Shown here: positions 391 through 45,287 of the stretch, piece after piece
How positions within the stretch are numbered: position 1 is the first letter of the stretch
Layout of the letters: each line of letters opens with the position of its first letter
Source: a bacterium
GTDB taxonomy: Bacteria > Patescibacteriota > Minisyncoccia > Minisyncoccales > CG1-02-41-26
Length of the DNA stretch: 64,000 nt
Assembly (NCBI GenBank): GCA_030616605.1
Contig: JAUWWY010000004.1
Coordinates: forward strand, 1,101-65,100
Direction of reading: 5' to 3'
Notes under the pieces: generated by a model
The model's database searches: none
Seen by the model: only the letters and a program-made list of their open reading frames with translations
What the model was told of the DNA's origin: nothing
Made by a program: the position numbers and the translations under genes

Positions 391-949
391 AAAATCACAA
401 AAAGGAGAAAGAGCTTATGATATTTTTTCCCGTCTTTTGGAAGAAAGAATAATATTTTTAGCCGGTCCTATTACTGATGCCCTGGCTAATTTAGTTATAG
501 CTGAAATTTTGTATTTAACTTCAAAGAGTCCCCATCAAGATATCAAACTCTATATTAACACTCCGGGCGGAGTAGTAACGTCGGGTTTGGCAATTTATGA
601 TACGATGCAATACGTGGATTGCGATGTTTCAACTATTTGTGTTGGAATAGCCGGTTCAATGGGAGCTACTTTATTGGCTGCTGGTGCTAAAGGAAAGAGG
701 TTTGCCTTGCCAAATTCAGAGATTTTATTGCACCAGGTAGCTGGAGGAATCAGAGGACAAGCAGCTGAAATTGAAATCGGAGCCCGTCAAATTTTAAAGA
801 TTAAAAAAAACCTTAATCAAATTTTAGCCAAACACACTGGTCAACCCTTAAATAAGATTGAGAAAGACACAGATAGAGACTTTTATTTGTCGGCTGAAGA
901 AGCAAAGAAGTACGGTATTATTGATGAAGTAATTAAAGGCAAAAAATAG
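362..949 (+). CDS. clpP: ATP-dependent Clp protease proteolytic subunit
   Basis: '[33 protein letters not shown]', '[18 protein letters not shown]' and '[11 protein letters not shown]' are ClpP hallmarks, including the Ser nucleophile context. ORF track starts at 287. ATG at 362 (MSPIIPT...) fits the usual N-terminus; ATG at 332 is an alternative. Confidence 0.9.
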
Positions 950-968
950 AAATTAAAAGGTCTAAATA

Positions 969-987
969 ACAGAGAACAGTTCTCTGT
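969..987. promoter_or_regulatory. perfect 19-nt palindrome ACAGAGAAC-A-GTTCTCTGT (copy 1)
   Basis: Read directly. Lies 20 nt after the clpP stop and is preceded by AAAGGTCTAA. An identical copy is at 5905..5923. Confidence 0.6.
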
Positions 988-1011
988 AAATTTTAAAACT
1001 AAAAAAAGAAA

Positions 1012-1524
1012 ATGAAGAAATTACTTTTTCGTATTATCATATTGATTGTTGCTGTAGTAATTATTGGTCTGATTTACCTTTTGTTTGAAGAAGACGAGGT
1101 TCCTGAGGATTTGTCAGAAGAAGGAATTGCTGAAGGTGAGGTTCCACCCCTCTCTCTAGAAGAAAAACCAGGAGATACTGGAGAGGTCTGGCTTAAAGAT
1201 GAGGAAAGCGGCGAAGAAGAACGTTTAGTTACTCCTATTATACCTTCGGTTATATTCAGCACTTCGGGAATCATCCTTGAGCTAAAATCAGACTCTCTAA
1301 TTATTGCTGGTGATGGCTATAACTTCGCTGACCAAACTTCCAGAAACCTGACTTGTATTTTCGCTGATGAAACCTTAACTTTTACTAAAAACCAAGTTCA
1401 GCGTTATTCTGGTCAGGAAGGCCTGAAATATTTGGAACAAGGAATGAAAGTGTTAATATCTTCCAATGAAAATATTCGAGGTAAAACCGAATTCAAAATA
1501 AAAACAATTAATATACTTAATTAA
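1012..1524 (+). CDS. hypothetical N-terminally membrane-anchored protein
   Basis: ORF with a hydrophobic N-terminal helix (FRIIILIVAVVIIGLIYLLF), an acidic linker and a small C-terminal domain. No recognised family. Confidence 0.5.
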   Translation: MKKLLFRIIILIVAVVIIGLIYLLFEEDEVPEDLSEEGIAEGEVPPLSLEEKPGDTGEVWLKDEESGEEERLVTPIIPSVIFSTSGIILELKSDSLIIAGDGYNFADQTSRNLTCIFADETLTFTKNQVQRYSGQEGLKYLEQGMKVLISSNENIRGKTEFKIKTINILN

Positions 1525-1555
1525 ATAAAGGTCTAATAATTTGTATAGTTTCCCG

Positions 1556-1582
1556 CCATAATTTTGCTCGGCAAAATTATGG
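1556..1582. promoter_or_regulatory. 12-bp inverted repeat (CCATAATTTTGC tcg GCAAAATTATGG)
   Basis: Read directly in the 1525-1603 spacer. No T-run follows, so it is either a weak terminator for the 1012 gene or a leader hairpin for the 1604 gene. Confidence 0.35.
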
Positions 1583-1603
1583 GGGTGGCTAACAATTTCT
1601 AAT

Positions 1604-3160
1604 ATGTTCAAACAAAAATTAAAATCAATTGCTTTTTTAAGTAGTATTCTTATTTTAAGTTTCGCTTCAGCTCTTTTCATTCTTGCCTGGACTTCTCCTG
1701 CAGAGGTTCCTCCAGGAGGAAATGTTGATACTCCAATTAATGTGGGAACAAGTCCTCAAGCTAAAGCTGGGAGGATTTCAGCCACTGAATTTTACGATTA
1801 CAACGATAACGCCTATTATCTGGATCCTGATGGTCAATCAGTTTTAGCCGGCCCTGTCGGCATCGGGACGGTGAGTCCCTCAGCTTCTCTGGATATTGCT
1901 GGTGATGGTGTGAGTGGGCCATCGTTAGAAGTGGCGGATACTAGATTAGTGGCTTTTAAGTACGGTCCCGCAGGCTTTAATGTGACCGGCGCACCAATCA
2001 TATTGAAGTATACATATAGTGGTGGTACTTACGGCAAAAATTTTGGTTCGTGGCTCATTGAGCTCTCTGCTAGAGATGATAGCAACGAGTACCTGCATGA
2101 GCTGTGGTATTTTGAGGTTAACAGGAAGTGGTCTAGTACTCCTGGAGCTAATGCAACTTTTTATTATGATGCCCATAGAATTTCAGGAACTAAAAACGTT
2201 CGATTGTTTGAGACATCTAACACAGGAACATCAGGGAATGGTTTACAATTAGAGTGGGAGTTGTCAAACGATGGTGCTGGCTTTAATGATAGTGTTGAAA
2301 TAACTGTTATGGAACTATCAGCAGGTCACGATGGGGGACATATTGGTACTTGGGAAGCCATTACCTATGCTTCTAGAGGCGGTGGTACTGAGAAGACCAG
2401 GGGCGGTACTGGCCATGCCACTTTTGGTGGAACAGGCTACCATTGGTTAATGGGCAAAGTCGGCATCGGGACAACGAGTCCGGGATATGCATTGAGTGTT
2501 GTTGGGGACATAAATATTACCGGTGATTTTAGACAGAACGGAACGATTTTTGAAGGCGGTGGAGAAAGTCCTTGGAGCACCTGCACCAATGGTATCTGTT
2601 ACAACGCTGGCAATGTCGGCATCGGGGTAGAAGATCCTGATTATACTTTAGAAGTACAAATTACAGAATATGCCGCGGGAGGCATTAAAGTTTCGGACCC
2701 AGATGATACCATTGCAACAATAGGAGATTGGGCAGGCACTGGCGAGATTGGTGCTGTGAGGCTTTTTTATGAAGGAACAGAAAATGTGAGAATACTTAGT
2801 AGTGGAGATTCTTATTTTACGGGAGGAGATGTCGGCATCGGGACAACGGATCTAAGTTCACCTTTTGATGATAAGCCACTAGTTATACAGGGTATAGGAA
2901 CCGGTCATGAATTAGTCGGTTACAGAGATGCCAGTGGAACGGCAAAGTGGCACTGGAATATGTATGGTGATGGATTGAATTTAGCCGAAACAGGGGTTGC
3001 TGATGGCAGGTTATTTATCGAATACGGCGGTGATGTTGGCATTGGGACAAGGTCGCCGGCTGAGAACTTACATGTAGCGGGGAAAATAGCAATAGGTGAT
3101 TCAACTCCGAAAAAGATTTACGAATCTGGTGGAGATCTGATTATAGATATAAGCAACTGA
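1604..3160 (+). CDS. secreted repeat protein with five 'VGIGT-x-x-P-x-x-x-L-x-V' motifs (fibre/tail-fibre-like)
   Basis: Signal-anchor N-terminus. Motifs are PVGIGTVSPSASLDIAG, KVGIGTTSPGYALSVVG, NVGIGVEDPDYTLEV, DVGIGTTDLSSP and DVGIGTRSPAENLHVAG. The DNA 12-mer GTCGGCATCGGG recurs exactly at about 1856, 2459, 2625 and 2830. Confidence 0.7.
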   Translation: MFKQKLKSIAFLSSILILSFASALFILAWTSPAEVPPGGNVDTPINVGTSPQAKAGRISATEFYDYNDNAYYLDPDGQSVLAGPVGIGTVSPSASLDIAGDGVSGPSLEVADTRLVAFKYGPAGFNVTGAPIILKYTYSGGTYGKNFGSWLIELSARDDSNEYLHELWYFEVNRKWSSTPGANATFYYDAHRISGTKNVRLFETSNTGTSGNGLQLEWELSNDGAGFNDSVEITVMELSAGHDGGHIGTWEAITYASRGGGTEKTRGGTGHATFGGTGYHWLMGKVGIGTTSPGYALSVVGDINITGDFRQNGTIFEGGGESPWSTCTNGICYNAGNVGIGVEDPDYTLEVQITEYAAGGIKVSDPDDTIATIGDWAGTGEIGAVRLFYEGTENVRILSSGDSYFTGGDVGIGTTDLSSPFDDKPLVIQGIGTGHELVGYRDASGTAKWHWNMYGDGLNLAETGVADGRLFIEYGGDVGIGTRSPAENLHVAGKIAIGDSTPKKIYESGGDLIIDISN

Positions 3161-3162
3161 GC

Positions 3163-5895
3163 ATGAAAAAGAACAAATTATTCATTTTTCTTGCAATAAC
3201 AGTCTTCATATTTTTAATTATTAATACCGAATCAGCTTTTGCTATTTGTGAGAGTAATTGGGATTGTGCTCCCTGTCAACAATGTATAGGTGGTGCTTGT
3301 TTTAACGCATGTTATGGTTGCGAAAGCTGTATCGGTGGTAGCTGTGTAGATGATGACTGGAATTGTTCTGGTTGCCGAAGCTGCAGCTATGGTAGTTGTG
3401 TGGATGATCAAAATAAATGTTCTGGTTGCCAAAGTTGCAGCTGGGGTAGCTGTGTGGATGATAACAGTAACTGCGATATTTGGGGTTGCGAAACGTGTAG
3501 CTTTGGTAGCTGTGTTTATGGATGTACTGGTTGTGAAAGTTGCACTTCTGGTTTTTGTGCGGATGATGACTGGAATTGTACTGGTTGCCAAAAGTGCGAG
3601 TGGGCTAGCTGTGTAGATAAAAACGATGAATGTGGTCCTTGCGAGTACTGTATCGGTGGTTTTTGTTATAGCAGCATAGGTTACTGCGGCAACTGCGGTG
3701 TTTGTAATTGGGATTGTTATAGTTTGGGTTCCGCTGCGTGTTCGGGTGAATGTCATACTTGTGTAGGTATATATCGGTATGAAGGATTTTTAGAGAAATT
3801 TTTATGGCAATACTGGTGCGCGAATGATAACAGTAAATGTACTGCTCCCGATGTTTGTTTTAACGGTAATTGTTGTACCCCGGGCACTTGTGGAAGTCTT
3901 GGTGTGGATTGCGGCACAAACATAGATGATGGATGTGGTGGTACTATAAATTGCGGTGGTTGTGGTCCCTGTGGTATTTGTAGTAGTGGGACTTGTTCTG
4001 CTGGCAACTGTGGTACTGGTTGTCAAACCTGTCAGGAAACAAGTTCAAATTACTATCGGTGCCGAGATGATAGCACTCAATGTTCTGCGTGTCAGTCCTG
4101 TCAGTCAGATGTATGTACGACAGGATATGGTGAATCCGACAAGGAATTAAAAATAATTAAAGATGGTAAAGTTTTAGCAGGTATTGACAGTGCTGGTACG
4201 ATGATGATAAGGGGTATTAGAAAATATGGCTCTCCTCCTGATGGTTTTAAAATTAAAGGTGGCAGTACTGCAGCTAATTCTGTGACTATAAGACCGAATT
4301 GGTATGGTGATTCCGAGAATTGGAGTGTATACCCCCCTGGCACAAGCTGGAACTACCAAGCTGTGGATGATACAGGTACCAGTGATGGTGATAGCACATT
4401 TGTTCAAGCTGGACCTAATGCGACCGATCTTTATAACATGCAGACATCAGCCGTGCTTACAGGCAAGACAATCACCAATGTAAAGGTCAAGTACAGGTGT
4501 AAAATCAGTCAGGGTGAACCAGGTGTGGCAGTACTCGTCAAGAGTGGTAGTTCTCAAATCCTAACATTCTCTGAAACATTAGGGCCTGGTTACATTCTTT
4601 TCTCTAAGACATTTTCTAGCAAACCAGGCGGTGGTAGCTGGACTAAGAGCGATATAGACAGTTTACAAGTAGGTATTGTTGCTAGCGGTCCTGCTGCTGT
4701 GCCTAACGGTAACGGCCCTCCTCCTATAAATGGCCGTCCTCCTGTAATTATGTCGCTGGTTGCAGGAACCAAAGTGCTGATGGCAGATGGGAAATATAAG
4801 AATATAGAGGATGTCCAGGTTGAAGATTTGGTTACCTCGTTTGATGTTGAAGCTTGGGAGTTTAAACAAGCGCGTGTTAGTAAAAAGACCACAGGTAGTA
4901 AACCCTATCTTGAGATTAATAAGGCATTAAAAGTTTCATTGACTCACCCTGTTTATGTTGTTGGAAAGGGATTTATTCCTGCCAGCGAGATTATTATTGG
5001 AGACCGACTCATCAATGAACAAGGTCAAGAAAAAGTAGTTGAAACTATTATTTTTGTTGATGAAAAAGTAGCTGTTCATGATATCGCCTTAGATTCTTTC
5101 CAGACCTTTTTCGCTGATGAATATCTTGTCCACAATGCCCTTGCCGTTTCTCATAAAGCTCGATGTACCCAGGTCTATGCTGTGGTTAATTACACAGAAA
5201 CGATTACAACCATTTCTGGGATTGATTCTAATGGTAATCTTTGGCTTCCAGGAAATCTTTATCAGAATTCAACCCCAGCACCAACAGGCAAAAAAGAACT
5301 TCTTGTAAAAGGTGCGGTTGGTAATCTTGCTAAGTTTGATGACTCTGGAAACCTTTATTTGAGGTGTGCTCTTATCCAGGATGGCTGGAGAATTCCAGAT
5401 TATACCTACCACGAACTGCCAAATTCTGCTTATGGAGGTTCAGGAAGTAATGACTGGGATAATTTTTATAATATAACCAGTTACAGTGGTTATGCAAAAA
5501 GTCGTATAGATGATGAGTATCATAGTGACTCATTAAAAGCTTTTGATTTTGAATTTGATGATTATCTGACTGCTGATGCAAGAGGAATTACAGGTATTGA
5601 AGTTAAGATAAGACATAAATCAAGTGACTCATGGTGTATTGAGGATTATATAGTGAAATTACTTGATGGAGATGGATACTCTGTAGGAAATGACAAGAGT
5701 GAGTGGGAAGGCTGGTCAACGAGTCCAGAGACTATTACTTATGGTGGTCAAGGGGATACGTGGGGAGCAGGTCTTACTGTAGATGATATTAGAAGTTCTA
5801 ATTTTGGGGTTCGTTTAAGGGCATATAATGATTGTGATAGCCGTGAGAATGCATATGTTTACTGGATAACAATAAAGATTTATTATTACAGATAA
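3163..5895 (+). CDS. giant secreted Cys-rich protein with embedded Hint/bacterial-intein-like domain (paralog A)
   Basis: Signal peptide (LFIFLAITVFIFLIINTESAFA). About 300 aa of CxxCxxC repeats. 'CGTNIDDGCGGTINCGGCGPCG' motif. Two beta-sandwich-like modules and a 128-aa Hint domain. Paralogous to 7817..10570. Confidence 0.85.
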   Translation: MKKNKLFIFLAITVFIFLIINTESAFAICESNWDCAPCQQCIGGACFNACYGCESCIGGSCVDDDWNCSGCRSCSYGSCVDDQNKCSGCQSCSWGSCVDDNSNCDIWGCETCSFGSCVYGCTGCESCTSGFCADDDWNCTGCQKCEWASCVDKNDECGPCEYCIGGFCYSSIGYCGNCGVCNWDCYSLGSAACSGECHTCVGIYRYEGFLEKFLWQYWCANDNSKCTAPDVCFNGNCCTPGTCGSLGVDCGTNIDDGCGGTINCGGCGPCGICSSGTCSAGNCGTGCQTCQETSSNYYRCRDDSTQCSACQSCQSDVCTTGYGESDKELKIIKDGKVLAGIDSAGTMMIRGIRKYGSPPDGFKIKGGSTAANSVTIRPNWYGDSENWSVYPPGTSWNYQAVDDTGTSDGDSTFVQAGPNATDLYNMQTSAVLTGKTITNVKVKYRCKISQGEPGVAVLVKSGSSQILTFSETLGPGYILFSKTFSSKPGGGSWTKSDIDSLQVGIVASGPAAVPNGNGPPPINGRPPVIMSLVAGTKVLMADGKYKNIEDVQVEDLVTSFDVEAWEFKQARVSKKTTGSKPYLEINKALKVSLTHPVYVVGKGFIPASEIIIGDRLINEQGQEKVVETIIFVDEKVAVHDIALDSFQTFFADEYLVHNALAVSHKARCTQVYAVVNYTETITTISGIDSNGNLWLPGNLYQNSTPAPTGKKELLVKGAVGNLAKFDDSGNLYLRCALIQDGWRIPDYTYHELPNSAYGGSGSNDWDNFYNITSYSGYAKSRIDDEYHSDSLKAFDFEFDDYLTADARGITGIEVKIRHKSSDSWCIEDYIVKLLDGDGYSVGNDKSEWEGWSTSPETITYGGQGDTWGAGLTVDDIRSSNFGVRLRAYNDCDSRENAYVYWITIKIYYYR
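3265..3680 (+). repeat. in-frame tandem array of ~54-bp units encoding G-C-x-x-C-x-x-G-x-C-V-D-D-x-x-x-C
   Basis: Units start at 3316 and 3370 (GGTTGC...) and continue with slightly variable length for about 7 copies. This array explains the spurious ORFs 3232..3756(-) and 3350..3616(+). Confidence 0.8.
4753..5136 (+). other. Hint / bacterial intein-like (BIL) domain, paralog A
   Basis: Block A-like 'SLVAGTKVLMADG', block B-like 'SLTHPVYV', and block F/G-like 'VHDIALDSFQTFFADEYLVHN' followed by Ala. Codons were located by hand: Ser 4753-4755, Asn 5134-5136. Confidence 0.75.
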
Positions 5896-7816: not shown

Positions 7817-10570
7817 ATGGCTGTTTTTTCAAAAAAGAAAATCATTCTTTTTTCAATTTTATTTTTTTTAGGTTTATTTTTTATTTTAGTAGATTCTGCT
7901 GCTGCATGGTGTTATGATTCAGACTATGGTGAGAACTATTTTTACGCTGGATACTGTTATGATAGTTATTATGATGATACTTATTATGATCACTGTACCT
8001 ATAATCATGCCGTTGATTATTTCTGCACGGAAGGGTATTGTGACGTTGACACGAAGAATTGTAATGACTACGATGCTACTACTGAATATTGTTCTGGAAA
8101 TCTAATAATGTCTGACTTGGAGGATTTTTACTGTTCAGGCGGTTTGTGTGACTCTATCACATATACTTCCACAATTAAAAACTGTGATGACGATGATGGT
8201 TGGTACACGGTAAGTTTTTACTATGGCTGTGTTGGAGATTTTCTATACTTATACAACTATCAGGAATACCAGGATTGGAGTTGTTTGGATGCACTTTGTT
8301 ACGTTGAAGTCACTAATTGGCAAACTGTCAGCCAATTGTTTGATATCTGCGAAGACGCTTGGTTTAATGAAGGTGATCCTTACCGCTACTGTACTGAAAA
8401 TTATATGTGTAGCTATCAAAACCAAAGACTCTATTGGGGGGTCTGTACTATATTAGGGTGTTCGTCTGAGTGGAGTAATACTACTCAAATTGTACAAATA
8501 CCAGGTAGCTGTACTTATTGTCCTAATTGTACCCTAGACACTTGTGCGAGTCTTGGTGCAGAGTGCGGCACAAACATAGATGATGGATGCGGGGGTACTA
8601 TAGATTGCGGTGGCTGTGGTCCCTGTGGTGTTTGTAGCGCTGGGACTTGTTCTGCTATTTCTCCTGACCCGTGTTCTGGCTGTCAAACCTGCCAGGAGGT
8701 AGCCTCAAATGACTATCGTTGCCAGGATGATAGCAATCAATGTCCTCCTTGTCAGGTATGTGAGTCAGGTGTATGTAATATGCCAGAATATGATGAATCC
8801 GGCAAGGAATTAAAAATAATTAAGGATGGTAGGGTTTTAGCAGGTATTGACAGCAATGGTATAATGATAATACAGCGCTTTTTGAGAAGTGGCAGTCCTC
8901 CTAATGGTTTTAAAATTAAGGGTAGCAGTAGTGTTACAGCTGATTCTGTGACTATAAACCCGAATGCGGTTGGTGATTCCTCGGTTTGGGATGTAGTTGG
9001 TGCAACTTATAATTACCAGGCTGTGTCTGGTAGTGGATATGTTAAAGGCACTAATGGTCAGACTGATCTTTATCACATGCAGACATCAGGCGTGCTTGCA
9101 GGCAAGACAATCAACAATGTAAAGGTCTATTTCAGGTGTAGAATCAATTATGGTGAACCACGTGTGAAAGCAATTGTCAAGAGTGGTGGTTCTGTAAGTG
9201 AAAGAAGCCTTAAAACATTAGGGGCTAGTTACCAGCTTTTCTCTAGCACATTTTCCAGTAAACCAGGCGGTGGTGCCTGGACAAAGAGTGCTATAGATAG
9301 TTTACAAGTAGGTATTGTTGCTGCTGGTCCTGCTCCGCCTCCTAACGGCAACGGTCGCAACGGTCGCAACGGTCGTCCTCCTGTAATTAAGTCGCTGGTT
9401 GCAGGAACCAAAGTGCTCATGGCAGATGGGAAATATAAGAATATAGAGGATATCCAGGTTGGAGATTTGGTTACCTCGTTTGATGTTGAAACTTGGGAGT
9501 TTAAACAAGCGCTTGTTAGTAAAAAGACCACAGGTAGTAAACCCTATCTTGAGATTAATAAGGTATTGAAAGTTTCATTAACTCACCCTGTTTATGTTGT
9601 TGGAAAGGGATTTATTCCTGCCAGGGACATTATTATTGGAGACCGACTCATTAATGAACAGGGGGAAGAGGCAGTGGTTGAAAGCTTAAACTCTGTTGAT
9701 GAAAAAGTAGCTGTTCACGATATCGTATTAGATTCTTTCCAGACCTTTTTTGCTGATGAATATCTTGTCCACAATGCCGTACATGAAGCTCGATGTACCC
9801 AAGTCTATGCTGTGGTTAATTACACAGAAACGATTACAACCATTTCTGGGATTGATTCTAAAGGTAATCTTTGGCTTCCAGGAACTCTTTATGAGAATTC
9901 AACCTTAGTACCAACAGGCAAAAAAGAGCTTATTGTAAAAGGTGAGCTTGGTAATCTTGCTATGTTTGATGATTCTGGAAACCTTTATTTGAGGTGTGGT
10001 CTTATTGAAAATGGCTGGGGAATTCCAGACTCTACCAGCTGGGAACTGCCAACTTCTGCTTCGATGACGGTCTTCTATGGGGGTCAGGCGCCATGGACAA
10101 ATTATAATAATATTACTCAAGAAAGTAATTATGCAGTAAGTGAGATAACCACTGGCGCATCTTGGGAGATGAGTGGGGAGTTACATGCTTTTGATTTCCC
10201 CTTTAATCTGCATGCTGATGCAAAAAAAATTACAGGCATTGAAGTTCAGATAAGTCATAAGGCAAGTATCTGGTCCTCTATTTCAGACTATTTCGTGAAC
10301 TTAACTTATTATGGCGAGAGGCGGGACTCGAACAGAGCGAAGAGATACCGGGACGCATTTTGGAATATTCTATACTGGTCAACGAGCCAGGAGACTTTTA
10401 CTTATGGTGGTCCAGGGGATATGTGGAATCCTTTTGGATTAACTTATAGTGTGGATGAAATTAGAGATCAGCATATCGGGCTGAGTTTATTTGTAAGAAA
10501 TCTTCATCAAGGTAGCACTGATTCTGCCTATGTTTACTGGATAAAAATGAAGATTTATTATGACAGATAA
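7817..10570 (+). CDS. giant secreted Cys/Tyr/Asp-rich protein with embedded Hint/BIL domain (paralog B)
   Basis: Signal peptide. The N-terminal ~230 aa are unrelated to paralog A. The central region from about 8540 to 10030 aligns with A at about 3886-5400 with high nucleotide identity. The C-terminal module is diverged. Confidence 0.85.
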   Translation: MAVFSKKKIILFSILFFLGLFFILVDSAAAWCYDSDYGENYFYAGYCYDSYYDDTYYDHCTYNHAVDYFCTEGYCDVDTKNCNDYDATTEYCSGNLIMSDLEDFYCSGGLCDSITYTSTIKNCDDDDGWYTVSFYYGCVGDFLYLYNYQEYQDWSCLDALCYVEVTNWQTVSQLFDICEDAWFNEGDPYRYCTENYMCSYQNQRLYWGVCTILGCSSEWSNTTQIVQIPGSCTYCPNCTLDTCASLGAECGTNIDDGCGGTIDCGGCGPCGVCSAGTCSAISPDPCSGCQTCQEVASNDYRCQDDSNQCPPCQVCESGVCNMPEYDESGKELKIIKDGRVLAGIDSNGIMIIQRFLRSGSPPNGFKIKGSSSVTADSVTINPNAVGDSSVWDVVGATYNYQAVSGSGYVKGTNGQTDLYHMQTSGVLAGKTINNVKVYFRCRINYGEPRVKAIVKSGGSVSERSLKTLGASYQLFSSTFSSKPGGGAWTKSAIDSLQVGIVAAGPAPPPNGNGRNGRNGRPPVIKSLVAGTKVLMADGKYKNIEDIQVGDLVTSFDVETWEFKQALVSKKTTGSKPYLEINKVLKVSLTHPVYVVGKGFIPARDIIIGDRLINEQGEEAVVESLNSVDEKVAVHDIVLDSFQTFFADEYLVHNAVHEARCTQVYAVVNYTETITTISGIDSKGNLWLPGTLYENSTLVPTGKKELIVKGELGNLAMFDDSGNLYLRCGLIENGWGIPDSTSWELPTSASMTVFYGGQAPWTNYNNITQESNYAVSEITTGASWEMSGELHAFDFPFNLHADAKKITGIEVQISHKASIWSSISDYFVNLTYYGERRDSNRAKRYRDAFWNILYWSTSQETFTYGGPGDMWNPFGLTYSVDEIRDQHIGLSLFVRNLHQGSTDSAYVYWIKMKIYYDR
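9392..9775 (+). other. Hint / bacterial intein-like (BIL) domain, paralog B
   Basis: Same blocks as paralog A ('SLVAGTKVLMADG' ... 'LTHPVYV' ... 'FFADEYLVHN' followed by Ala). Ser codon 9392-9394, Asn codon 9773-9775. Confidence 0.75.
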
Positions 10571-18880: not shown

Positions 18881-18943
18881 ATTTAACCTTCTATTGCAAA
18901 CTTTTCATTTGTTTTATTTTATCTAACCACTTTTTTTATGTTA

Positions 18944-19134
18944 TAATTACAAGTGAAGAAAAAATTCAAGAATTTATTCTTGAATTTCGACCGAACGAAG
19001 TAATTTCAAGGTTCTACGAGCAGAGCGAGCAGGTTCTTACCTCCGAACAAAGTGAGACAAATTAAATGAGTTTATTCATTTAATTTGCGAACGAGTGAGG
19101 AGGCAAGGTTCTGCCGAAGGCAGGTTCTTATAAT
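18944..19134 (+). repeat. modular intergenic repeat family, locus 1 (two units)
   Basis: Modules are ATAATTACAAGTGAAGAA, hairpin ATTCAAGAAT-tt-ATTCTTGAAT, TTCGACCGAACGAAGTAATT, and AAGGTTCT-N15-CAGGTTCTTA. A second unit has hairpin AAATTAAATGA..TCATTTAATTT and AAGGTTCTGCCGAAGGCAGGTTCTTATAAT. Same family as 26361, 34608 and 43997. Confidence 0.8.
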
Positions 19135-25094: not shown

Positions 25095-26356
25095 AATTTA
25101 GCAAACAATTGAAAATCAATAATTTCAGTAGTCAGAAAGGTTTTGTTGCTCTTATTATTTCTATTTTAATTTTAGGAATAATGATAACTATTGGAGTCAG
25201 TATTACTACTTTAATCATAGGTCGTCACCAGATTTCAGCTAACATTCTCAAATCTAATCAAGCTTATTTTGCAGCTGAGGCTGGAATTGAAGATGCTCTT
25301 TTGCGATTGGTAAAAAATATGGATTGGACTTCAACTTCTACTCCTCTAAAAGTTGGTCAAGCCACTTCTACCACCGGGATATCAGAAATTCTTGGTGGGG
25401 CAAGAACCATTACTGCTCAGGGTAATTTTAGGGATGTAATAAGAAGGGTCAGAGCAGTTTATGAAATCTCAACTGAGGAAATCTCTTTTTATTACGGTGC
25501 TCAAGTAGGAGAGGGAGGGATAATAATGGATGACGGAAGCACTATAGATGGTAATGTTTTTTCAAATGGTAATATTGAAGGTACGGGCAACCCTGAAATT
25601 ACTGGGACAGCTAAGGTAGCAAAAACCGGAAATTATATTGATGGGATTACGATTGGAGAAGACGCTTTAGTAGATATTTGCAAAAATTCTAATATTTCAG
25701 ATACTTTAACTTGTGCCAATAACATCAGTTGTAATGCTTCTTTTATAGAGCCCCTGACCGAAGAAATTGCCACTGGCACTATGACTATTTCTCAAGAACA
25801 GATTAATAAATGGAAAAACGATGCCTCTTCAACTATTTTTACAGGAGATTACGTTTTAAAAGGACAAGACCAAGTTTTTCTGGGACTCCAAAAAATTGAA
25901 GGGAATTTAATTCTTCAAGACAAAGCTAAACTTTATAGTACCGGAACTATTTGGGTTACTGGTAATATTACTGCCACAAATACTGCCGAAATAAGATTAG
26001 ATAAAGATAGTTTCGGTTCTCTTAGTGGAGTAATTATCAGTGACGGCATAATTACTCTCAAGGATTCCGGAAAAGCTTTAGGAACTGGAGAACCTGGAAG
26101 TTATCTTTTACTTATTTCTACTGTTCCTGGCGAGCCAGCTATTACCATCCAAAATTCAGTTGAAGCAGATATTCTCTATGCTCAAAATGGCTGGATTGTG
26201 GTTCAGGACACTGCTGATGTAAGGGAAGTTGGTGGATACGGAATTCATTTAAAAAATAATGCTAAAATTATCTATGATATAGGCCTTGAAGACGCATCTT
26301 TTTCTTCGGGTCCTGGTGGCTCTTGGCAAGTAACAAGTTGGGAAGAGATAGAGTAA
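25091..26356 (+). CDS. large pilin-like protein (PilX/tip-type candidate)
   Basis: 'SQKG|FVALIISILILGIMITIG' N-terminus, then 'QAYFAAEAGIEDAL' (PilX-N-like) and a Gly/Asn/Thr-rich beta-helix-like region. Confidence 0.55.
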   Translation: MKFSKQLKINNFSSQKGFVALIISILILGIMITIGVSITTLIIGRHQISANILKSNQAYFAAEAGIEDALLRLVKNMDWTSTSTPLKVGQATSTTGISEILGGARTITAQGNFRDVIRRVRAVYEISTEEISFYYGAQVGEGGIIMDDGSTIDGNVFSNGNIEGTGNPEITGTAKVAKTGNYIDGITIGEDALVDICKNSNISDTLTCANNISCNASFIEPLTEEIATGTMTISQEQINKWKNDASSTIFTGDYVLKGQDQVFLGLQKIEGNLILQDKAKLYSTGTIWVTGNITATNTAEIRLDKDSFGSLSGVIISDGIITLKDSGKALGTGEPGSYLLLISTVPGEPAITIQNSVEADILYAQNGWIVVQDTADVREVGGYGIHLKNNAKIIYDIGLEDASFSSGPGGSWQVTSWEEIE

Positions 26357-26360
26357 ATGC

Positions 26361-26535
26361 TATAATTGCAAGTGAGGAAGAAAAAGAAGAATTCATTCTT
26401 CTTTTTCGACCGAACGAACAATTAGCTAAGCGAAGCGAAAGCATAATTACAAGTGAAGAAGAAATTCAAGAATTTATTCTTGAATTTCGACCGAACGAAG
26501 TAATTAGAAGGTTCTGCGAGCGAAGCGAGCAGGTT
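26361..26535 (+). repeat. modular intergenic repeat family, locus 2 (two tandem units)
   Basis: Unit 1 is TATAATTGCAAGTGAGGAAG, hairpin AAGAAGAAT-tc-ATTCTTCTT, then TTCGACCGAACGAAC... Unit 2 is nearly identical to locus 1 unit 1 and ends CAGGTTCTTATAAT, 12 nt before the pilM ATG. Confidence 0.8.
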
Positions 26536-26551
26536 CTTATAATTGTAATAT

Positions 26552-32929: not shown

Positions 32930-34609
32930 TTAAACTTCTATAACAACCGGCAGTATTATTGGTCTTCGTTTTGTTTTGGAAAAAAGAAACTCACCAATTT
33001 TATTTCTTAATTCATCTTTAACATGAGTCCAATTAACTGCTCCACCTGAGCCGGCTGCTTTGTTTACGATATCAATAATTCTTTTCCTCGTTTCTTTTAA
33101 AAGTTCTTTTGATTCTCTTAAATAAATAAACCCTCTTGATATTATATCAGGAGAACCTTTAATCTTTCCAGCTTGCCTGTCTACAATAGCGATAATGACG
33201 AACATTCCATCCTGAGCTAAATTTTGTCTGTCTCGTAAAACTACTTCTCCAACATCTCCGATTCCCAAACCGTCAACCATCACATAATTTGAAGGCACTC
33301 TCTCTTTTGTAAGAGAAAGTGTTTTTTGATTCAAATTTATAACTTGCCCATTTTCAGCAATAACGATATTTTTTGGAGAGATACCTTCTTCTTCTGCCAG
33401 TTCAGCATGTTTTACTAACATTGAATATTGTCCGTAAATAGGCAGAAAGAATTTTGGTTTCATAATCCTTATCATTTCTTTCAATTCTTCCTGTTTAGCG
33501 TGTCCTGAAGCATGGATATCCATCATTTTGTAGTGAAAGACTTTAGCTCCTTGGCGGTGGAATTCATCTTTTAAAATCTGAACACTTTTCTCATTTCCGG
33601 GAACTATTGAAGAAGAAAAAATAATAGTATCTTCTTTCTTAATCTGAATAAATTTATGTTCATGATTGGCAATTCTCATAAAAGCAGCATCCTCTTCTCC
33701 TTGGGCACCGGTACAAATAACACTTATTTTTGAGTCAGGGAATTTACTGATATCTTTTGTTTTTATAAAAGTTCCCTTTTTAACCTTAATTTTTTTTAGA
33801 GTTTGAGCAACTTTGATATTAGTTTTCATACTGTATCCCTCAATTGCTACTTTTCTTTTATATTTTTCAGAGAGAGTAATTAATTGTTGAATTCGGTTAA
33901 TAAGAGAAGCAAAAGAGGCGGCAATAATTCTACCTTCTACTTTTTTGAAAATTTTATCTAAGTTTTCAAAAATTGTTTCTTCGGAAAGAGAATGACCTTC
34001 TTCTTCTGCCCCGGTAGATTCAGACATTAAGAGTAAAATACCTCTTTGAGCAATCTTTTTTAATTTCTCAAAATTGGTTGGAGGTTCATTAACCGGCGAT
34101 TCATCAAATTTAAAATCAGAAGTATGGATAATATTTCCGACAGGGGTCTTAATAAAAAATCCAAGATTGTCTGGAATGTTGTGATTTAATCTGAAAAATT
34201 CAATTTCAAACGGTCCTAATTTAATCTTAGAGCCGTCTTTTACTGTTTCTATCTCAGGTTGAGGTTGATTTGAAAAATCTTCCTGCCTTTTTAAAATCAT
34301 ACCTTTAGTTAAGGCACCGGTATATATTGGAATAGAGCCAATTCTTGGCAGGGTATAGGGAATAGCCCCAATATGGTCATAATGGCCGTGAGTAATGATT
34401 GTCCCCAGAATATCTTTTGTTCTTTTCTTTAAATAAGCACTATTGGGAATAGTACAATCAATTCCAGGCATATTTTCTTCAGGGAAACCAAGACCCATAT
34501 CCATAATTAAAATCTTTCCTTGATATTCAAAAAGTATCATATTCCTACCGACTTCACCTTGGCCGCCCAAAGGAATTATTCTGAGATTTTGTTTTTGAGA
34601 TTTTTCCAT
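32930..34609 (-). CDS. rnj: ribonuclease J
   Basis: Metallo-beta-lactamase 'ITHGHYDHIG', beta-CASP region, 'HASGHA'. The ORF-track start at 34648 lies inside the intergenic repeat; ATG at 34609 (MEKSQKQNLRIIPLGG) is preferred. Confidence 0.9.
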   Translation of the reverse strand: MEKSQKQNLRIIPLGGQGEVGRNMILFEYQGKILIMDMGLGFPEENMPGIDCTIPNSAYLKKRTKDILGTIITHGHYDHIGAIPYTLPRIGSIPIYTGALTKGMILKRQEDFSNQPQPEIETVKDGSKIKLGPFEIEFFRLNHNIPDNLGFFIKTPVGNIIHTSDFKFDESPVNEPPTNFEKLKKIAQRGILLLMSESTGAEEEGHSLSEETIFENLDKIFKKVEGRIIAASFASLINRIQQLITLSEKYKRKVAIEGYSMKTNIKVAQTLKKIKVKKGTFIKTKDISKFPDSKISVICTGAQGEEDAAFMRIANHEHKFIQIKKEDTIIFSSSIVPGNEKSVQILKDEFHRQGAKVFHYKMMDIHASGHAKQEELKEMIRIMKPKFFLPIYGQYSMLVKHAELAEEEGISPKNIVIAENGQVINLNQKTLSLTKERVPSNYVMVDGLGIGDVGEVVLRDRQNLAQDGMFVIIAIVDRQAGKIKGSPDIISRGFIYLRESKELLKETRKRIIDIVNKAAGSGGAVNWTHVKDELRNKIGEFLFSKTKRRPIILPVVIEV

Positions 34610-34778
34610 AATTGCAAGAGAGGAAGAAAATTGAAAGTTTACTTTCAATTTTCGACCGAACGAAGTAATTAGAAGGTTCTGTAAACTTAGTGAGCAGGTT
34701 CTTATTTTCGGAATATATATTTATACCTTGCCGAAATCAAGGTTCTGCCGAGCATTAGCGAGGCAGGTTCTTATAGTA
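34608..34778 (+). repeat. modular intergenic repeat family, locus 3 (two units)
   Basis: ATAATTGCAAGAGAGGAAG, hairpin ATTGAAAGT-tt-ACTTTCAAT, TTCGACCGAACGAAGTAATTAG, AAGGTTCT-N-CAGGTTCTTA. Then TTTTCGGAATATATATTTATACCTTGCCGAAATC and AAGGTTCTGCCGAGCATTAGCGAGGCAGGTTCTTATAG. Confidence 0.8.
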
Positions 34779-38178: not shown

Positions 38179-38616
38179 ATGATGACAGAAGAAAGGGAGC
38201 AAAGAGTAAGAGAGCTCTGGCAGGAACTCTTAGAACAGGGACCAACCAGGGGTGATATTCGCTTTATCATTGAAAAAGTTAAACTCTTAAGAGGAGAAGC
38301 CTGGCAGAAACTCCTAAGCTGGGGACCAACCAATGATGACCTCTGCTATATCATCAAATATATTGAGTCCTTAAGAGAAGAAGCCGGCCAGAAACTCTTA
38401 AAACAGGCACCAACCAATGATAACATCCGCCTTATTATTAGGTCTGTTGAGTCCTTAAGAGAGGAAGCCGGTCAGAAACTCTTAGAACAGGGAGCAGCCA
38501 GGATTGACCTCCGCTGTATCATCAGATATATTGAACCCTTAAGAGAAAAAGCCAAGCGACTGCTTAAAGGACCACGGGAGGAGATTCTTAAAGAGATGCT
38601 TGCCCTCGTTCCTTAG
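38179..38616 (+). CDS. tandem 29-aa helical-repeat protein
   Basis: Four consecutive 87-bp repeats encoding 'A-x-QKLL-x-Q-x-PTNDD-x-x-x-II-x-x-(V/I)E-x-LREE'. The antisense ORF 38094..38333 is an artefact. Confidence 0.65.
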   Translation: MMTEEREQRVRELWQELLEQGPTRGDIRFIIEKVKLLRGEAWQKLLSWGPTNDDLCYIIKYIESLREEAGQKLLKQAPTNDNIRLIIRSVESLREEAGQKLLEQGAARIDLRCIIRYIEPLREKAKRLLKGPREEILKEMLALVP

Positions 38617-42901: not shown

Positions 42902-43996
42902 TTACTTCTTTAGAACTTCAAGATAAGTTCTTTCATAATTGTCTACCATTTTCTCCAAACTAAAATTTTTTTCAATATGAGCTCGGCAATCTTTTGAATT
43001 TATTTCATTAATTTTTTTTAAAGCTTTTTTCAATCCCTCAATCCCTTGTTTTGGTTTGACTACAAAGCCAGTTTTTCCATTATTTACAAGTTCTGAAACA
43101 GAGCCTCTATCAAAGCCGATAACAGGAGTTCCGCAAGATTGAGCTTCAGCCATTATTAAACCAAAGGGTTCTTGCCAGTTGATAGTCATTAGGAAAGCTT
43201 TTGCTTTCTGCATCAATTTGGCAACCTGCCTTTTAAATAAAGGCTGCTCGAAAGAAATTGGCGCTATCCAGTTAATTTTTCTTGATAGATAGGGCTTAAC
43301 ATCTTTTTTAAAAAATTCCGGGTCTTCAACATTGCCAGCCAACAAAAGCTTTGAGTTTGTCTCTCTGGCTAATTTTATTGCCCATCTTACTCCTTTGGGG
43401 TCCAAAAAGTTTCCTTTTTTGTCTTTGGCCTTAGCTAATCTCCCAATCCATAAAAGATAATCCTCTTTTTTTGAGCAAAATCCATATAGGTTTGTATCTA
43501 CTCCATTATGAATCACTCTGGAAATTTTTGATTTTTTAGCTAATCTCTTGACCGCTTTTGAAATGCAAATTAAATAAGCCCCAGAGAACAAAGACAAGGC
43601 CTCATCTAATTCAGGTGTCATTTGAGTATGGATGGTGGTAACTAGGGGTGTTTTAATATGTTTTTCCATCAATAGGGGAATAAACTCCGGGTAAGAGTGA
43701 TTATGAATTATATCAAAATTAGAAGATATTTTTTCTACTATTTTAATTTGTTTTATTAAAAAGGAAGTGTGGGCGTAGAAAGGATTTTCAAAGGAAGAAG
43801 ATATTTCATAAAAACCTTTTTTAATAATTGGAATGATTTCAACTCCAGGAATATAACTATCTTCTGTTCCCAGAACAGTGATTTTATGACCCCTTTTTTT
43901 AAGTCCAGAAATCAAATCAAAAATTACTCTGGGTCTGGCAGCAGTAATTTTTTGGGAAATTTTTCTTGTCAGAGGAGCAAGAACAAGAATTTTCAT
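42902..43996 (-). CDS. glycosyltransferase family 4
   Basis: 'EPFGLIMAEAQSCGTPVIGFDRGS' GT-B/GT4 C-terminal motif. Confidence 0.8.
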   Translation of the reverse strand: MKILVLAPLTRKISQKITAARPRVIFDLISGLKKRGHKITVLGTEDSYIPGVEIIPIIKKGFYEISSSFENPFYAHTSFLIKQIKIVEKISSNFDIIHNHSYPEFIPLLMEKHIKTPLVTTIHTQMTPELDEALSLFSGAYLICISKAVKRLAKKSKISRVIHNGVDTNLYGFCSKKEDYLLWIGRLAKAKDKKGNFLDPKGVRWAIKLARETNSKLLLAGNVEDPEFFKKDVKPYLSRKINWIAPISFEQPLFKRQVAKLMQKAKAFLMTINWQEPFGLIMAEAQSCGTPVIGFDRGSVSELVNNGKTGFVVKPKQGIEGLKKALKKINEINSKDCRAHIEKNFSLEKMVDNYERTYLEVLKK

Positions 43997-44067
43997 ATTA
44001 TTTTCGGAATATATATTTATACCTTACCGAAATCAAGGTTCTGCGAACAAAGTGAGCAGGTTCTTAT
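43997..44067 (+). repeat. modular intergenic repeat family, locus 4 (one unit)
   Basis: TTTTCGGAATATATATTTATACCTTACCGAAATC and AAGGTTCTGCGAACAAAGTGAGCAGGTTCTTAT. Fills the whole spacer between two GT4 genes and overlaps the upstream gene's stop. Confidence 0.8.
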
Positions 44068-45287
44068 TTTGAATTTTGTTTTTGGTTTGACTTCTTTCCA
44101 TTAACCAAACTTTTGCGGTAGATTCTTTGATATCTTTTAGCAATTTTAGGCCAAGTGAATTTCTTTTCAATAAATTCTCGGCCATTTTGGCCCATCTTTT
44201 CTCTTAGCTCATCATCAGAGAGAATTTTATTTACTGCCTCAGCAATCTTTTTATTACTTCTAGCTCTTACTAAAATTCCATTTATACCATTTTTTACTGC
44301 TAATGGTATTCCTCCTTTTCTGGTTGCTACCACTGGAGTTTTCGTTGCCATTGCTTCAAGGATTGTAAGTCCTAAGGCCTCTGCAATTACTGATGGGGCG
44401 ACAAAAACATCGGCCCGGTAATAAAATTCCTTTAGTTCATTTTCCTGTTCTTTGCCCATGTAGCCTAAAAAGTGAATATTTTTAGAATTTATCTCTGTAG
44501 CCATCTCTTTTAATCTATTAAGTTCTGGACCATCTCCAATAAGATATATCTCTGCTTTTATATCGTTAGCTGCTTTTATCAAATATTCAACTCCCTTTTC
44601 AAGAGTTAGTTTACCAGTAAATAGCACTATTTTTTTATTTTTTAATTTATATTTTTTATTAATAGTTCTTATTTTTGTTTGCTCGGGGAATCTTTCAAGT
44701 TCTATTCCTCCGGGAATAATTCTGGTTTTTCTGTCAAATTCTTCACCGAAAGTTGTTAATAATCTTTTTTTAGTATCTCTACTTACGCAAATGGTTTGTT
44801 TGGCTCTTTTTAAAGCATCTTGAGATAAAGGCAGGTAGGTTTTATTTTCCGAAGCGGTAAAAATACCTGTGCCATGAGAGGTAACTACAAAATTGATATC
44901 GTAGAGTGATTTTATAAAATTAGCTACCCATAAGAGAATAGAAATGTGCTGGACATGTAAAATATTGGGCTTAAAATCTTCTATTGTCTTTATGGTACTT
45001 AAAAGGAAAGTTCTAAAAATTTCAGTTATTTCTTGAGCTGAAAGGTCTTTATATTGTCTTACTACCGGCCATTCAGGATGGGAGGTAAAAGCCGCAGGAA
45101 AAGGTATCTCTAAAAAATAACTTTTTACATTGGGGATTTTTTTTGTCTCTTCTTTAATTTTAGATTCGGGCGAAAGTATTGCTACTTCGTTTGTCTTTTT
45201 TTGAGCTAATTCTTTAGCCAAGCAACGAGTATAAGTTCCTGAACCACAGCCCCATAAAGGAAAGCACTGAAGGAATAAAATTTTCAT
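44064..45287 (-). CDS. glycosyltransferase family 4
   Basis: 'EALGLTILEAMATKTPVVATRKGG' and an N-terminal GT4 domain. Confidence 0.8.
   Translation of the reverse strand: MKILFLQCFPLWGCGSGTYTRCLAKELAQKKTNEVAILSPESKIKEETKKIPNVKSYFLEIPFPAAFTSHPEWPVVRQYKDLSAQEITEIFRTFLLSTIKTIEDFKPNILHVQHISILLWVANFIKSLYDINFVVTSHGTGIFTASENKTYLPLSQDALKRAKQTICVSRDTKKRLLTTFGEEFDRKTRIIPGGIELERFPEQTKIRTINKKYKLKNKKIVLFTGKLTLEKGVEYLIKAANDIKAEIYLIGDGPELNRLKEMATEINSKNIHFLGYMGKEQENELKEFYYRADVFVAPSVIAEALGLTILEAMATKTPVVATRKGGIPLAVKNGINGILVRARSNKKIAEAVNKILSDDELREKMGQNGREFIEKKFTWPKIAKRYQRIYRKSLVNGKKSNQKQNSK

Follow-up and report, generated by a model that had tools for sequence, protein, structure and literature searches.

Mosaic repeat blocks in a Parcubacteria genome: probable piles of small, hairpin-forming mobile DNA units

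Repeat blocks and their neighbouring genes

The window analysed here, a 64 kb stretch of a Patescibacteriota/Parcubacteria contig, carries repeat blocks at four loci (loci 1–4, at 18944, 26361, 34608 and 43997). Locus 1 lies between a GFO/IDH oxidoreductase gene (−) and a HisKA/HATPase kinase gene (+), locus 2 between genes for a PilX-like protein (+) and PilM (+), locus 3 between RNase J (−) and tRNA-Leu(CAG) (−), and locus 4 between two GT4 glycosyltransferase genes (both −). A preliminary description had reported sequence modules (a to e) at these four positions, next to genes for the kinase, PilM, RNase J and a GT4 protein; modules and flanking genes were all found as described, the modules in numbers far above chance. 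The G+C content of the window is 31–40% (mean about 34%), a LOOT RNA is present, and an array of glycosyltransferase paralogues occupies 45.9–53.1 kb. RNase Y is encoded in the genome along with RNase J. A sequence lookup with the PilM protein of the window found no encoding contig on record.

Within the window, the 14-mer TTCGACCGAACGAA has four exact matches (0.24 expected), and CAGGTTCTTAT, allowing up to one mismatch, has eight (1.46 expected), six of them inside the loci. The 31 nt core of module e is matched twice (expected 0), and the word CGARC-N2-4-RYGAG occurs eight times compared with 0.39 expected. A direct-repeat search returned a 97 nt unit in three copies, at 18943, 26443 and 34608 (94% and 76% identity to the reference), while its first 62 nt are found in four copies, the extra one at 26357, and its d part in five. 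The 94% identity of the 18943 and 26443 units extends across all 97 nt (abc plus d), and indicates recent copying.

The blocks are mosaics of distinct hairpin units, with at least four types among them: abc (63 nt), f (an abc that has diverged), d, and the composite e-d (66 nt). Their positions are listed in Table 1, where insertion points are marked by an arrow. The f unit of locus 1 folds as DNA with −15.7 kcal/mol (z=−4.25). The first e-d unit (DNA fold z=−2.5) ends 5 nt from tRNA-Leu. The second is framed by two genes: its final TTA is the TAA stop codon of the GT4 gene at 44064–45287 (−), and 4 nt separate its 5′ end from the start codon of the other GT4 gene, at 42902–43996 (−). Linkers with a GNA loop, like the one at locus 2, are also present in L007, L051, L062 and L069 (L numbers denote genome or metagenome contigs fetched from outside the window). 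At two of the loci a TATAAT stands shortly before an ATG, as had been noted: 21 nt before the ATG at 19156 in locus 1, and 8 nt before the ATG at 26552 in locus 2.

Table 1. Units, hairpins and junctions of the four repeat blocks, in window coordinates.
Feature	Position	Strand	Description
5′ junction, locus 1	18939–18947	+	TGtTA↓TAAT; flank TGTTA plus first 4 bases of the unit form an extended −10 box
abc unit 1	18944–19005	+	R1 77.3 bits; P1 TAATTAC/GTAATT, lower stem with GA mismatches, P2 ATTCAAGAAT/ATTCTTGAAT
d hairpin 1	19008–19039	+	CTTA end
f unit	19040–19103	+	P1 CCTCC/GGAGG; CGAAC..GTGAG in both arms; R1 23.7 bits, E=0.008
d hairpin 2	19105–19130	+	CTGCC-GAA-GGCAG; CTTA end, with flank TAAT gives TATAAT 19129–19134
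pilM promoter and 5′ junction, locus 2	26338–26366	+	TTGGGA-17-TATAAT with TG; promoter scan 10/12 plus TG
abc unit 2, without d	26363–26424	+	R1 78.5 bits
Linker mini-hairpin	26425–26443	+	GCTAAGCGAAGCGAAAGCA, contains GCGAAGC; GNA loop
abc unit 3	26444–26506	+	R1 83.6 bits
d hairpin 3	26508–26539	+	CTTA, with flank TAAT gives TATAAT 26538–26543
abc unit 4	34609–34671	+	R1 82.2 bits; first base completes the RNase J start codon (CAT 34607–34609 on + strand)
d hairpin 4	34673–34704	+	CTTA end
e-d unit 1	34705–34773	+	e 34705–34738 (TTTCGG/CCGAAA stem, AT-rich loop), d 34739–34773
e-d unit 2	44001–44066	+	e 44001–44034, d 44035–44066

Hairpin structure and covariation of the units

Modules a, b and c together form one long imperfect hairpin, and module d is itself a hairpin; the preliminary description had missed both. 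The outer stem of abc, P1, is formed by TAATTNN at the 5′ end of a and NNAATTA at the 3′ end of c, and b is the hairpin tip, P2. Between P1 and P2, the a strand reads (C)A-GT-GA-GG-GA-GAAA and lies opposite TTTC-GA-CC-GA-AC-GA-A of the c strand, both conserved, so that two-base Watson–Crick steps alternate with adjacent G.A mismatches. The d hairpin is made of CT-GC, G.A G.A, 2 bp and a triloop, then GTTCTTA, and among d hairpins the pattern from CTGC to the triloop is either kept or fully compensated. Module e consists of the stem TTTCGG/CCGAAA with an AT-rich loop. A helix with two adjacent G.A mismatches, GTGAG/CGAAC, is common to abc, f (in both arms) and d (at its tip).

The 'GGTTCT' heptamers, noted earlier as direct repeats, are the lower arms of the imperfect d hairpin. 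They had been offered as a landing pad for a DNA-binding regulator, which might alternatively bind the near-palindrome TTCG-N6-CGAA in module c. In favour of such a role, AAGGTTCT occurs 14 times (4.9 expected), and 10 of the 14 positions of TTCGACCGAACGAA agree with its reverse complement. However, the start-to-start spacing of the heptamers is 16, 22, 22, 22, 25 and 36 nt, no fixed phasing was found across genomes, and the intervening sequence forms a hairpin in every case, with compensatory change. In other genomes AAGCTTTGCTTA takes the place of the module, the same module is found inside a coding region, and the neighbouring genes are functionally unrelated, all of which makes a landing pad very improbable. 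DNA uptake sequences, and polar signals of the KOPS and Chi type, are ruled out by low density, intergenic restriction and the covarying structure.

The claim that the pairing of the hairpin is kept through compensatory change was borne out by an alignment of 32 distinct abc units, drawn from Parcubacteria MAGs and metagenomes. Paired cells make up 92.0% in this alignment, compared with 82.8% after shuffling and 35–51% in slid controls, and both sides have changed in 72 cells where 22 were expected, a count reached in none of 500 shuffles. For example, the outer P1 pair (columns 10/70) is CG in 16 units, GC in 13 and UA in two, and one copy, in L045, has an entirely different P1 (ATTAACAC/GTGTTAAT). 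The four abc units of the window score 77–84 bits with the covariance model R1. The 15 nt core of c was the search key and its invariance across lineages is partly a matter of ascertainment; module a is strongly conserved too, although it was not used as a key, and its conservation could reflect a host function and not recognition by a transposase.

Strong covariation in P1 and P2 would also suit structured RNAs read from the + strand, either cis-regulatory elements or the small-RNA family suggested earlier, with the conserved internal loops as a putative ligand or protein site. These loops are purine-rich and carry tandem G.A, as do many RNA motifs, and the arms of d pair via G.U on the + strand only. 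Among the mismatches of abc, however, G.T (16) is not commoner than A.C (28), a lack of + strand wobble bias by which nothing favours a + strand RNA in particular, and as single-stranded DNA both strands fold equally well (z −2.5 to −4.3). Transcripts of the junction promoter described below are predicted to start inside the 5′ strand of P1, so P1 would be unable to form in that RNA. In Rfam 15 no family reached its gathering threshold, and in the window only the tRNAs and LOOT matched; the best match on two loci (E up to 10) was a 31 nt hairpin with E=0.034 and 22.6 bits, against a threshold of 55.8 bits. Units also lie in both orientations relative to genes, orthologous sites at the RNase J and pilM loci are empty in relatives, and insertions are nested in other units, split a tRNA gene or lie in frame within uvrA (see below), which leaves an RNA family as an improbable explanation. 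Hammerhead, K-turn and sarcin-ricin readings of the loops were rejected by eye, as core nucleotides or the 3 nt bulge are missing.

Filled and empty sites, termini and rebuilt signals

The gene order of the RNase J locus is kept in four relatives with 79–81% identical RNase J. There, tRNA-Leu directly abuts the RNase J ATG (GGCACTATG), with a one-base overlap in L071 (GGCACCATG) and a 14 nt spacer in L074/L075. The window has 165 nt (34609–34773) separating CTACTA from TGG (minus strand), and its predicted empty site is CTACTA↓TGGAAAAATC (− strand).

At the pilM locus, relatives L078 and L079 have a 17 nt spacer, TAG-gTGtTATAAT-ataaaat-ATG, preceded by the −35 sequence TTGGGA as in the window. 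Removal of 26363–26539 (177 nt) from the window leaves TAA-aTGcTATAAT-tgtaatat-ATG, and the predicted empty site is TGCTA↓TAATTGTAATATATG. The relatives thus have the same −35 hexamer and TGnTATAAT layout, uninterrupted and not identical in sequence, and the comparison places the 177 nt block within the −10 hexamer of a predicted leaderless pilM promoter. The two TATAAT boxes of such a block are the halves of one −10 box split by insertion, a point that the preliminary description had missed.

Contigs L064 and L031 are orthologous, with near-identical flanks (few substitutions), and differ by two clean indels: a 60 nt e-d unit nested in the loop of an abc unit (TTTA↓TTTTT), and a 79 nt f-d unit placed after GCTTA↓. 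Similarly, L007 has two units where L012 has one, and the subfamily of the extra unit recurs in L060, where both site and order are different. In L005, the anticodon loop of a tRNA-Ile(TAT) gene is interrupted by a unit (CTTA↓TAC); given the joined outer halves, ARAGORN calls a tRNA-Ile that has two acceptor mismatches. The loop of that inserted unit itself holds an intact tRNA-Ile(TAT). The uvrA gene of L071 contains a 48 nt insertion, an e-like mini-hairpin plus d, which is in frame and adds 16 residues; its d is identical at 25 of 26 positions to the window d at 19105, and the empty site, GGTTATTTTTGG, is found in L072. As judged from these sequence comparisons, it is well supported that abc, f, d and e-d units are insertions and that they are, or have been, mobile.

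Left flanks end in A in all events, and mostly in (T/C)TA, while right flanks begin with T. The units begin with TAAT (abc), TTTT (e) or CCTC (f), and every unit that bears d ends in CTTA. The ends of abc are inverted over 7–9 bp (P1, TAATTNN/NNAATTA), but terminal inverted repeats are absent from the composites (abc-d, f-d and e-d). A check for target-site duplications had been proposed earlier, and gave a divided answer: TA stands at both junctions in all filled/empty pairs, with a shared flank of 2–7 nt, but duplication of TA and duplication-free insertion at A↓T are indistinguishable, the junctions fitting both equally.

Signals at the insertion points are rebuilt. At loci 1 (TGtTA↓TAAT) and 2 (TGcTA↓TAAT) the −10 box is kept on either side of the block, with TATAATs starting at 18942 and 19129, and at 26361 and 26538. 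The RNase J ATG is rebuilt at locus 3 (CCA↓T), and at locus 4 one GT4 gene retains its TAA and the next retains its ATG region. The TATAAT at the 5′ junction is preceded by TGn in 11 of 24 units (three of the 11 being orthologous), compared with 7.6% of background TATAATs in the same loci (p=5e-7), which could mean selection for a working promoter and hence co-option.

All copies had been described as having the same absolute orientation; this holds in the window, where all lie on the G-rich + strand, but L045 and L060 carry units on both strands within 3–10 kb, and the uniformity of the window carries no weight, since it reflects only four events (chance 1 in 8). Of 20 classifiable copies, about 12 run in the sense of the genes and about eight, between co-directional genes, are antisense to both neighbours, the latter including window loci 3 and 4. 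In 10 of the 12 sense copies the unit, or its d or linker, ends 8–31 nt before an ATG. A co-opted portable expression cassette would supply a promoter plus 5′ leader, or an mRNA stabiliser, to the downstream gene, its parts being the last four bases of the −10 box, a GAGG(G/A)AG that resembles a Shine-Dalgarno sequence and lies close to where transcripts are predicted to start, and the hairpin. This reading draws on the sense copies and the TGn enrichment, on a perfect TTGACA-17-TATAAT in L063 and the TTGGGA-17-TGcTATAAT of the window, on a half-unit in L051 that supplies GAGGAAGAAATG of a real ORF, and on the presence of both RNase J and RNase Y. The antisense copies do not fit it, nor do the units in a tRNA gene and within uvrA. 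An ATG is present in only 15 of the 32 units, and in none of the window copies, and opens short peptides in two frames, on which grounds a leader peptide or uORF was also rejected. The 124 ORFs within 5 kb of units elsewhere belong, in their recurrent families (the 25 commonest families listed), to housekeeping functions with no common theme. A cassette is thus an unlikely general explanation, possible for sense copies, and it may hold alongside mobility.

Distribution, proposed mobilisation and known systems

When species-representative genomes were scanned for exact patterns, four Parcubacteria MAGs, Nealsonbacteria and Portnoybacteria among them, proved to carry the c core together with a full abc unit, and a metagenome scan gave 64 loci, roughly half with true abc units; the remainder, together with L002 and L004, are without module a and were set aside as chance or unrelated matches. 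Over all fetched loci outside the window, 38 matches reach at least 61 bits with R1. The units are thus spread over many Parcubacteria, and their distribution is patchy, as R1 found no abc units in 115 kb around RNase J in the four relatives described above. The c core had no match in viral contigs, where the d pattern was found at at least 120 loci; none of the six with a hairpin-like gap that were inspected is a credible d module. A full-text literature search found no description of the core sequence or of such repeats in CPR bacteria.

The preliminary description had found no transposase with the units, and this stands for the scanned ORFs of the window: they include no transposase, HUH/Y1, TnpB, Nop-domain or cas gene (about eight larger ORFs, mostly at 45.9–53.1 kb, were outside the scan). 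A large serine recombinase, encoded beside tRNA-Asn in an apparent integrated island, is the only recombinase among them. Elsewhere, no transposase family recurs among the 25 commonest families of the 124 neighbouring ORFs, a tally that a lone transposase could escape. Classical MITEs, derivatives of DDE transposons, have inverted repeats at both termini, a target-site duplication of constant length and a related autonomous IS with matching ends; neither the scanned window ORFs nor the recurring neighbours revealed such an IS.

Guide-RNA arrays of the TIGR-Tas or CRISPR type come to mind since TIGR-Tas, including a type with a stem-loop array, is reported in CPR genomes (PMC12045711), and Rfam gave scattered weak matches to C/D-box snoRNAs (E about 1–9). 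TIGR-Tas systems have a regular array, variable unpaired spacers of about 9 nt, box C/D flanks and an adjacent Nop-domain tas gene (PMC12045711). The units form no regular array, with two abc units at most side by side, and are dispersed at gene boundaries; their unpaired parts are conserved and their variable part is base-paired, the reverse of unpaired 9 nt spacers. As had been concluded earlier, the blocks are not CRISPR-like, lacking identical repeats regularly spaced by unique spacers. With neither a Nop-domain nor a cas gene among the scanned ORFs, a guide array is barely credible.

The four blocks are probably piles of small non-autonomous mobile DNA units. They are best labelled as a previously undescribed REP/MITE/RPE-like palindromic selfish-element family in CPR bacteria, and of the three options in the preliminary description the MITE/REP-like element fits best. 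Each unit is a self-complementary segment that, as a single strand, forms an imperfect hairpin around the GTGAG/CGAAC helix. Insertion takes place within a (T/C)TA↓T site, between its A and the final T, although duplication of TA fits equally, and new units often join head-to-tail after an earlier CTTA end or enter the TTTA↓T loop of another. Tandem and nested insertion of this kind produces the 'modular' mosaics. With TAAT or TTTT at one end and CTTA at the other, a unit inserting at TA↓TAAT, at A↓TG or beside TAA rebuilds the split −10 box, start codon or stop codon, and such rebuilding would let elements persist where intergenic DNA is nearly absent. The upstream junction promoter would now transcribe into the element, and insertions would be near-neutral.

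Hairpins of very high stability form in DNA with GNA triloops, for example GCGAAGC, and with tandem sheared G.A pairs. The presence of both features in the units, the covariation without an RNA-type wobble bias, the e-d units without inverted termini, and the constant 3′ hairpin followed by a short tail together suggest that a trans-acting enzyme, perhaps of the HUH/Y1 type by analogy with REP-RAYT or IS200/IS605, recognises the folded single DNA strand. A wider proposal is more tentative, though quite possible: Parcubacteria, and perhaps CPR bacteria more widely, may host an undescribed superfamily of hairpin selfish elements defined by the tandem-G.A helix GTGAG/CGAAC, which would integrate at TA in −10 boxes, ATG and TAA codons and an anticodon loop, and also in frame, with termini that repair the signal, an enzyme that reads folded single-stranded DNA, and some copies co-opted as promoter/leader cassettes.

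CPR bacteria have very small, densely packed genomes and are usually called poor in mobile DNA. If the interpretation is correct, widespread elements of 50–100 nt reside in promoters and in start and stop codons of these genomes, as well as within a tRNA gene and a DNA-repair protein, and their position within such signals would mean that selfish DNA can persist in compact genomes by repairing the signals that it interrupts. In the pilM case a predicted leaderless TGnTATAAT promoter has apparently been split and duplicated, by which the promoter architecture of Parcubacteria becomes testable. The elements mark insertion/deletion variation that could be used for strain tracking, and the conserved tandem-G.A hairpin offers a handle toward the mobilising enzyme. 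They can also cause gene starts to be miscalled (the ORF list stretches RNase J to a TTG inside the element, at 34648, and in L069 joins the unit in frame to the gene downstream), and can leave predicted MAG proteins with spurious inserted peptides.

REP/BIME mosaics, mobilised by RAYT (Y1/HUH) transposases (PMC3333891, PMC2817692), resemble the blocks in their short imperfect palindromes grouped in mosaic clusters with short linkers, strand-specific hairpins and conserved mismatches. They differ in having a GTAG/CGTC head, whereas the conserved words of the CPR units, GTGAG and CGAAC, lie within the stem, and in lying at gene 3′ ends in alternating orientation, whereas the CPR units are mostly at 5′ ends in direct orientation. 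No RAYT gene was found in the scanned window ORFs. REP-RAYT and IS200/IS605 would be the nearest mechanistic models (PMC3333891), but membership in REP-RAYT fails on the GTAG head and, as far as the 64 kb window shows, on the missing enzyme. Elements derived from IS200/IS605 (PATE) insert 3′ of a fixed tetra- or pentanucleotide, with no duplication, and have subterminal hairpins at either end. In the CPR units the left flank is nearly always (T/C)(T/C)A and hairpins stand at both ends of abc-d, but the two hairpins differ in sequence and the target is not strict. A further trait of such elements is strand bias relative to replication; the window copies all lie on the G-rich + strand, and L045 and L060 carry both orientations.

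BOX elements of Streptococcus pneumoniae, which are MITE-like, modular and 67–637 bp long (PMC3184786), are likewise assembled from a few modules whose number and order vary; modules and host are different, and signal rebuilding at TA sites is not described for BOX. Neisseria REP2 and Borrelia IR repeats carry a promoter, RBS and ATG (PMC3184786), and the CPR units share with them −10-like, RBS-like and ATG (15/32) features and two stem-loops upstream of genes. Unlike REP2, which is regulatory and is followed by real ORFs, the CPR units have no conserved ATG, and copies are antisense and intragenic. It is the expression-cassette reading that resembles REP2, or the Bacillus STAB-SD 5′ stabiliser.

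The behaviour of the units would appear closest to that of RPE and Correia elements. Ogata et al. reportedly described in 2000 that RPEs insert in frame into genes. Like RPEs, the CPR units are small palindromes without a transposase of their own, in a reduced genome, with insertions in intergenic regions, an RNA gene and, in frame, a protein (uvrA of L071); this likeness, set by description, is one of behaviour only. Correia elements duplicate a TA target. The CPR units likewise have TA at both junctions, termini that create or restore a −10 box, a frequent position 5′ of genes and a long hairpin. RPEs are about 105–146 bp in length (PMC3184786), unlike the CPR units of 48–97 nt, which are modular, TA-centred and rebuild −10, ATG and TAA signals in a different host phylum. 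The Correia elements (CREE) of Neisseria are MITEs of about 104–157 bp with functional promoters (PMC3184786), differ in size and have no sequence similarity to the CPR units; they possess 26 bp terminal inverted repeats and an IHF site, whereas the inverted ends of abc (P1) span 7–9 bp and e-d has none.

Hairpin units within genes

In a Parcubacteria MAG (L005), an abc unit (a 63 nt imperfect hairpin) interrupts the anticodon loop of a tRNA-Ile(TAT) gene, and the loop of this unit itself holds a second, intact tRNA-Ile(TAT) with an encoded CCA. When joined, the outer halves still fold into a tRNA that has two mismatches in its acceptor stem. The uvrA gene of L071, an RNase J-locus relative, carries an in-frame insertion of 48 nt, consisting of a mini-hairpin and a d module (the 3′ hairpin ending in CTTA), which adds 16 residues to UvrA (RAKRENKVLPKAGSYF) and has TTATTTT at either side. 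Four other in-frame insertions, all hairpin-rich, are found in the Nealsonbacteria uvrA of L072 (18, about 20, 51 and 13 residues).

The repeat of metagenome Ga0154643 reads GGATCATACACAATTTAGGGTGAGTG...TTTCGACCGAACGAA...GAGTGAGTGGAGAAATCC. It has the c core and GAGTGA words in common with the hairpin units but differs in architecture, and might also belong to the proposed superfamily.

Features of the window and of related loci (L-numbers)
Feature	Position	Strand	Remarks
PT-HINT-domain proteins, two paralogues	window:3163-5895 and 7817-10570		about 910 aa
Cys-rich tandem repeat, 54 nt	window:3309-3660		in first PT-HINT paralogue region
RNase Y gene	window:10853-12382
RNase J gene	window:32930-34609
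pilM promoter region	window:26357-26554; L078:5984-6003; L079 (same region)
Tandem repeat	window:38221-38553		three copies, 84-nt spacing
Paralogue array	window:47054-53117	-	five or six genes, about 350 aa each
Putative integrated element	window:56258-64000
tRNA-Asn	window:56258-56330		adjoins recombinase
Large serine recombinase	window:56318-57802	-
LOOT RNA	window:62198-62311
DNA methylase-Mrr fusion	window:62372-63604
tRNA-Leu/RNase J junction	L071:9915-10003; L072, L073 (same region)
Mini-hairpin and d module in uvrA	L071:~5570-5620	-	compared with L072 uvrA (522-3641, -)
Split tRNA-Ile(TAT) and abc unit	L005:6860-7060	-	JACPBB010000002.1
Distinct repeat type, ~105 nt	L014, L035, L038, L052, L067		five contigs, Ga0154643

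Other repeats and a putative integrated element in the window

The two PT-HINT paralogue genes have long DNA repeats in common, with up to 96% identity. Neighbouring genes of the paralogue array show 63-75% DNA identity and, judged from context, probably encode glycosyltransferases. The three-copy tandem repeat (73-74% identity) overlaps an ORF at 38179-38616.

The end of the window looks like an integrated element, with the tRNA-Asn and serine recombinase followed by function-unassigned ORFs, the LOOT RNA and the methylase-Mrr fusion. No hairpin units occur within it.

Gene starts and RNA-decay enzymes

In the window lineage, pilM appears to be leaderless. In the window and both pilM-locus relatives (L078, L079), TGnTATAAT lies 7-8 nt upstream of the ATG, with no Shine-Dalgarno sequence; the -35 (TTGGGA) falls within the upstream coding region. 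In relatives L071-L073, the 3′ end of tRNA-Leu immediately abuts the RNase J start codon, the two overlapping by one base in L071 (GGCACCATG). Genes for RNase Y and for RNase J, the RNA-decay enzymes that characterise Gram-positive bacteria, are both present in the window genome.
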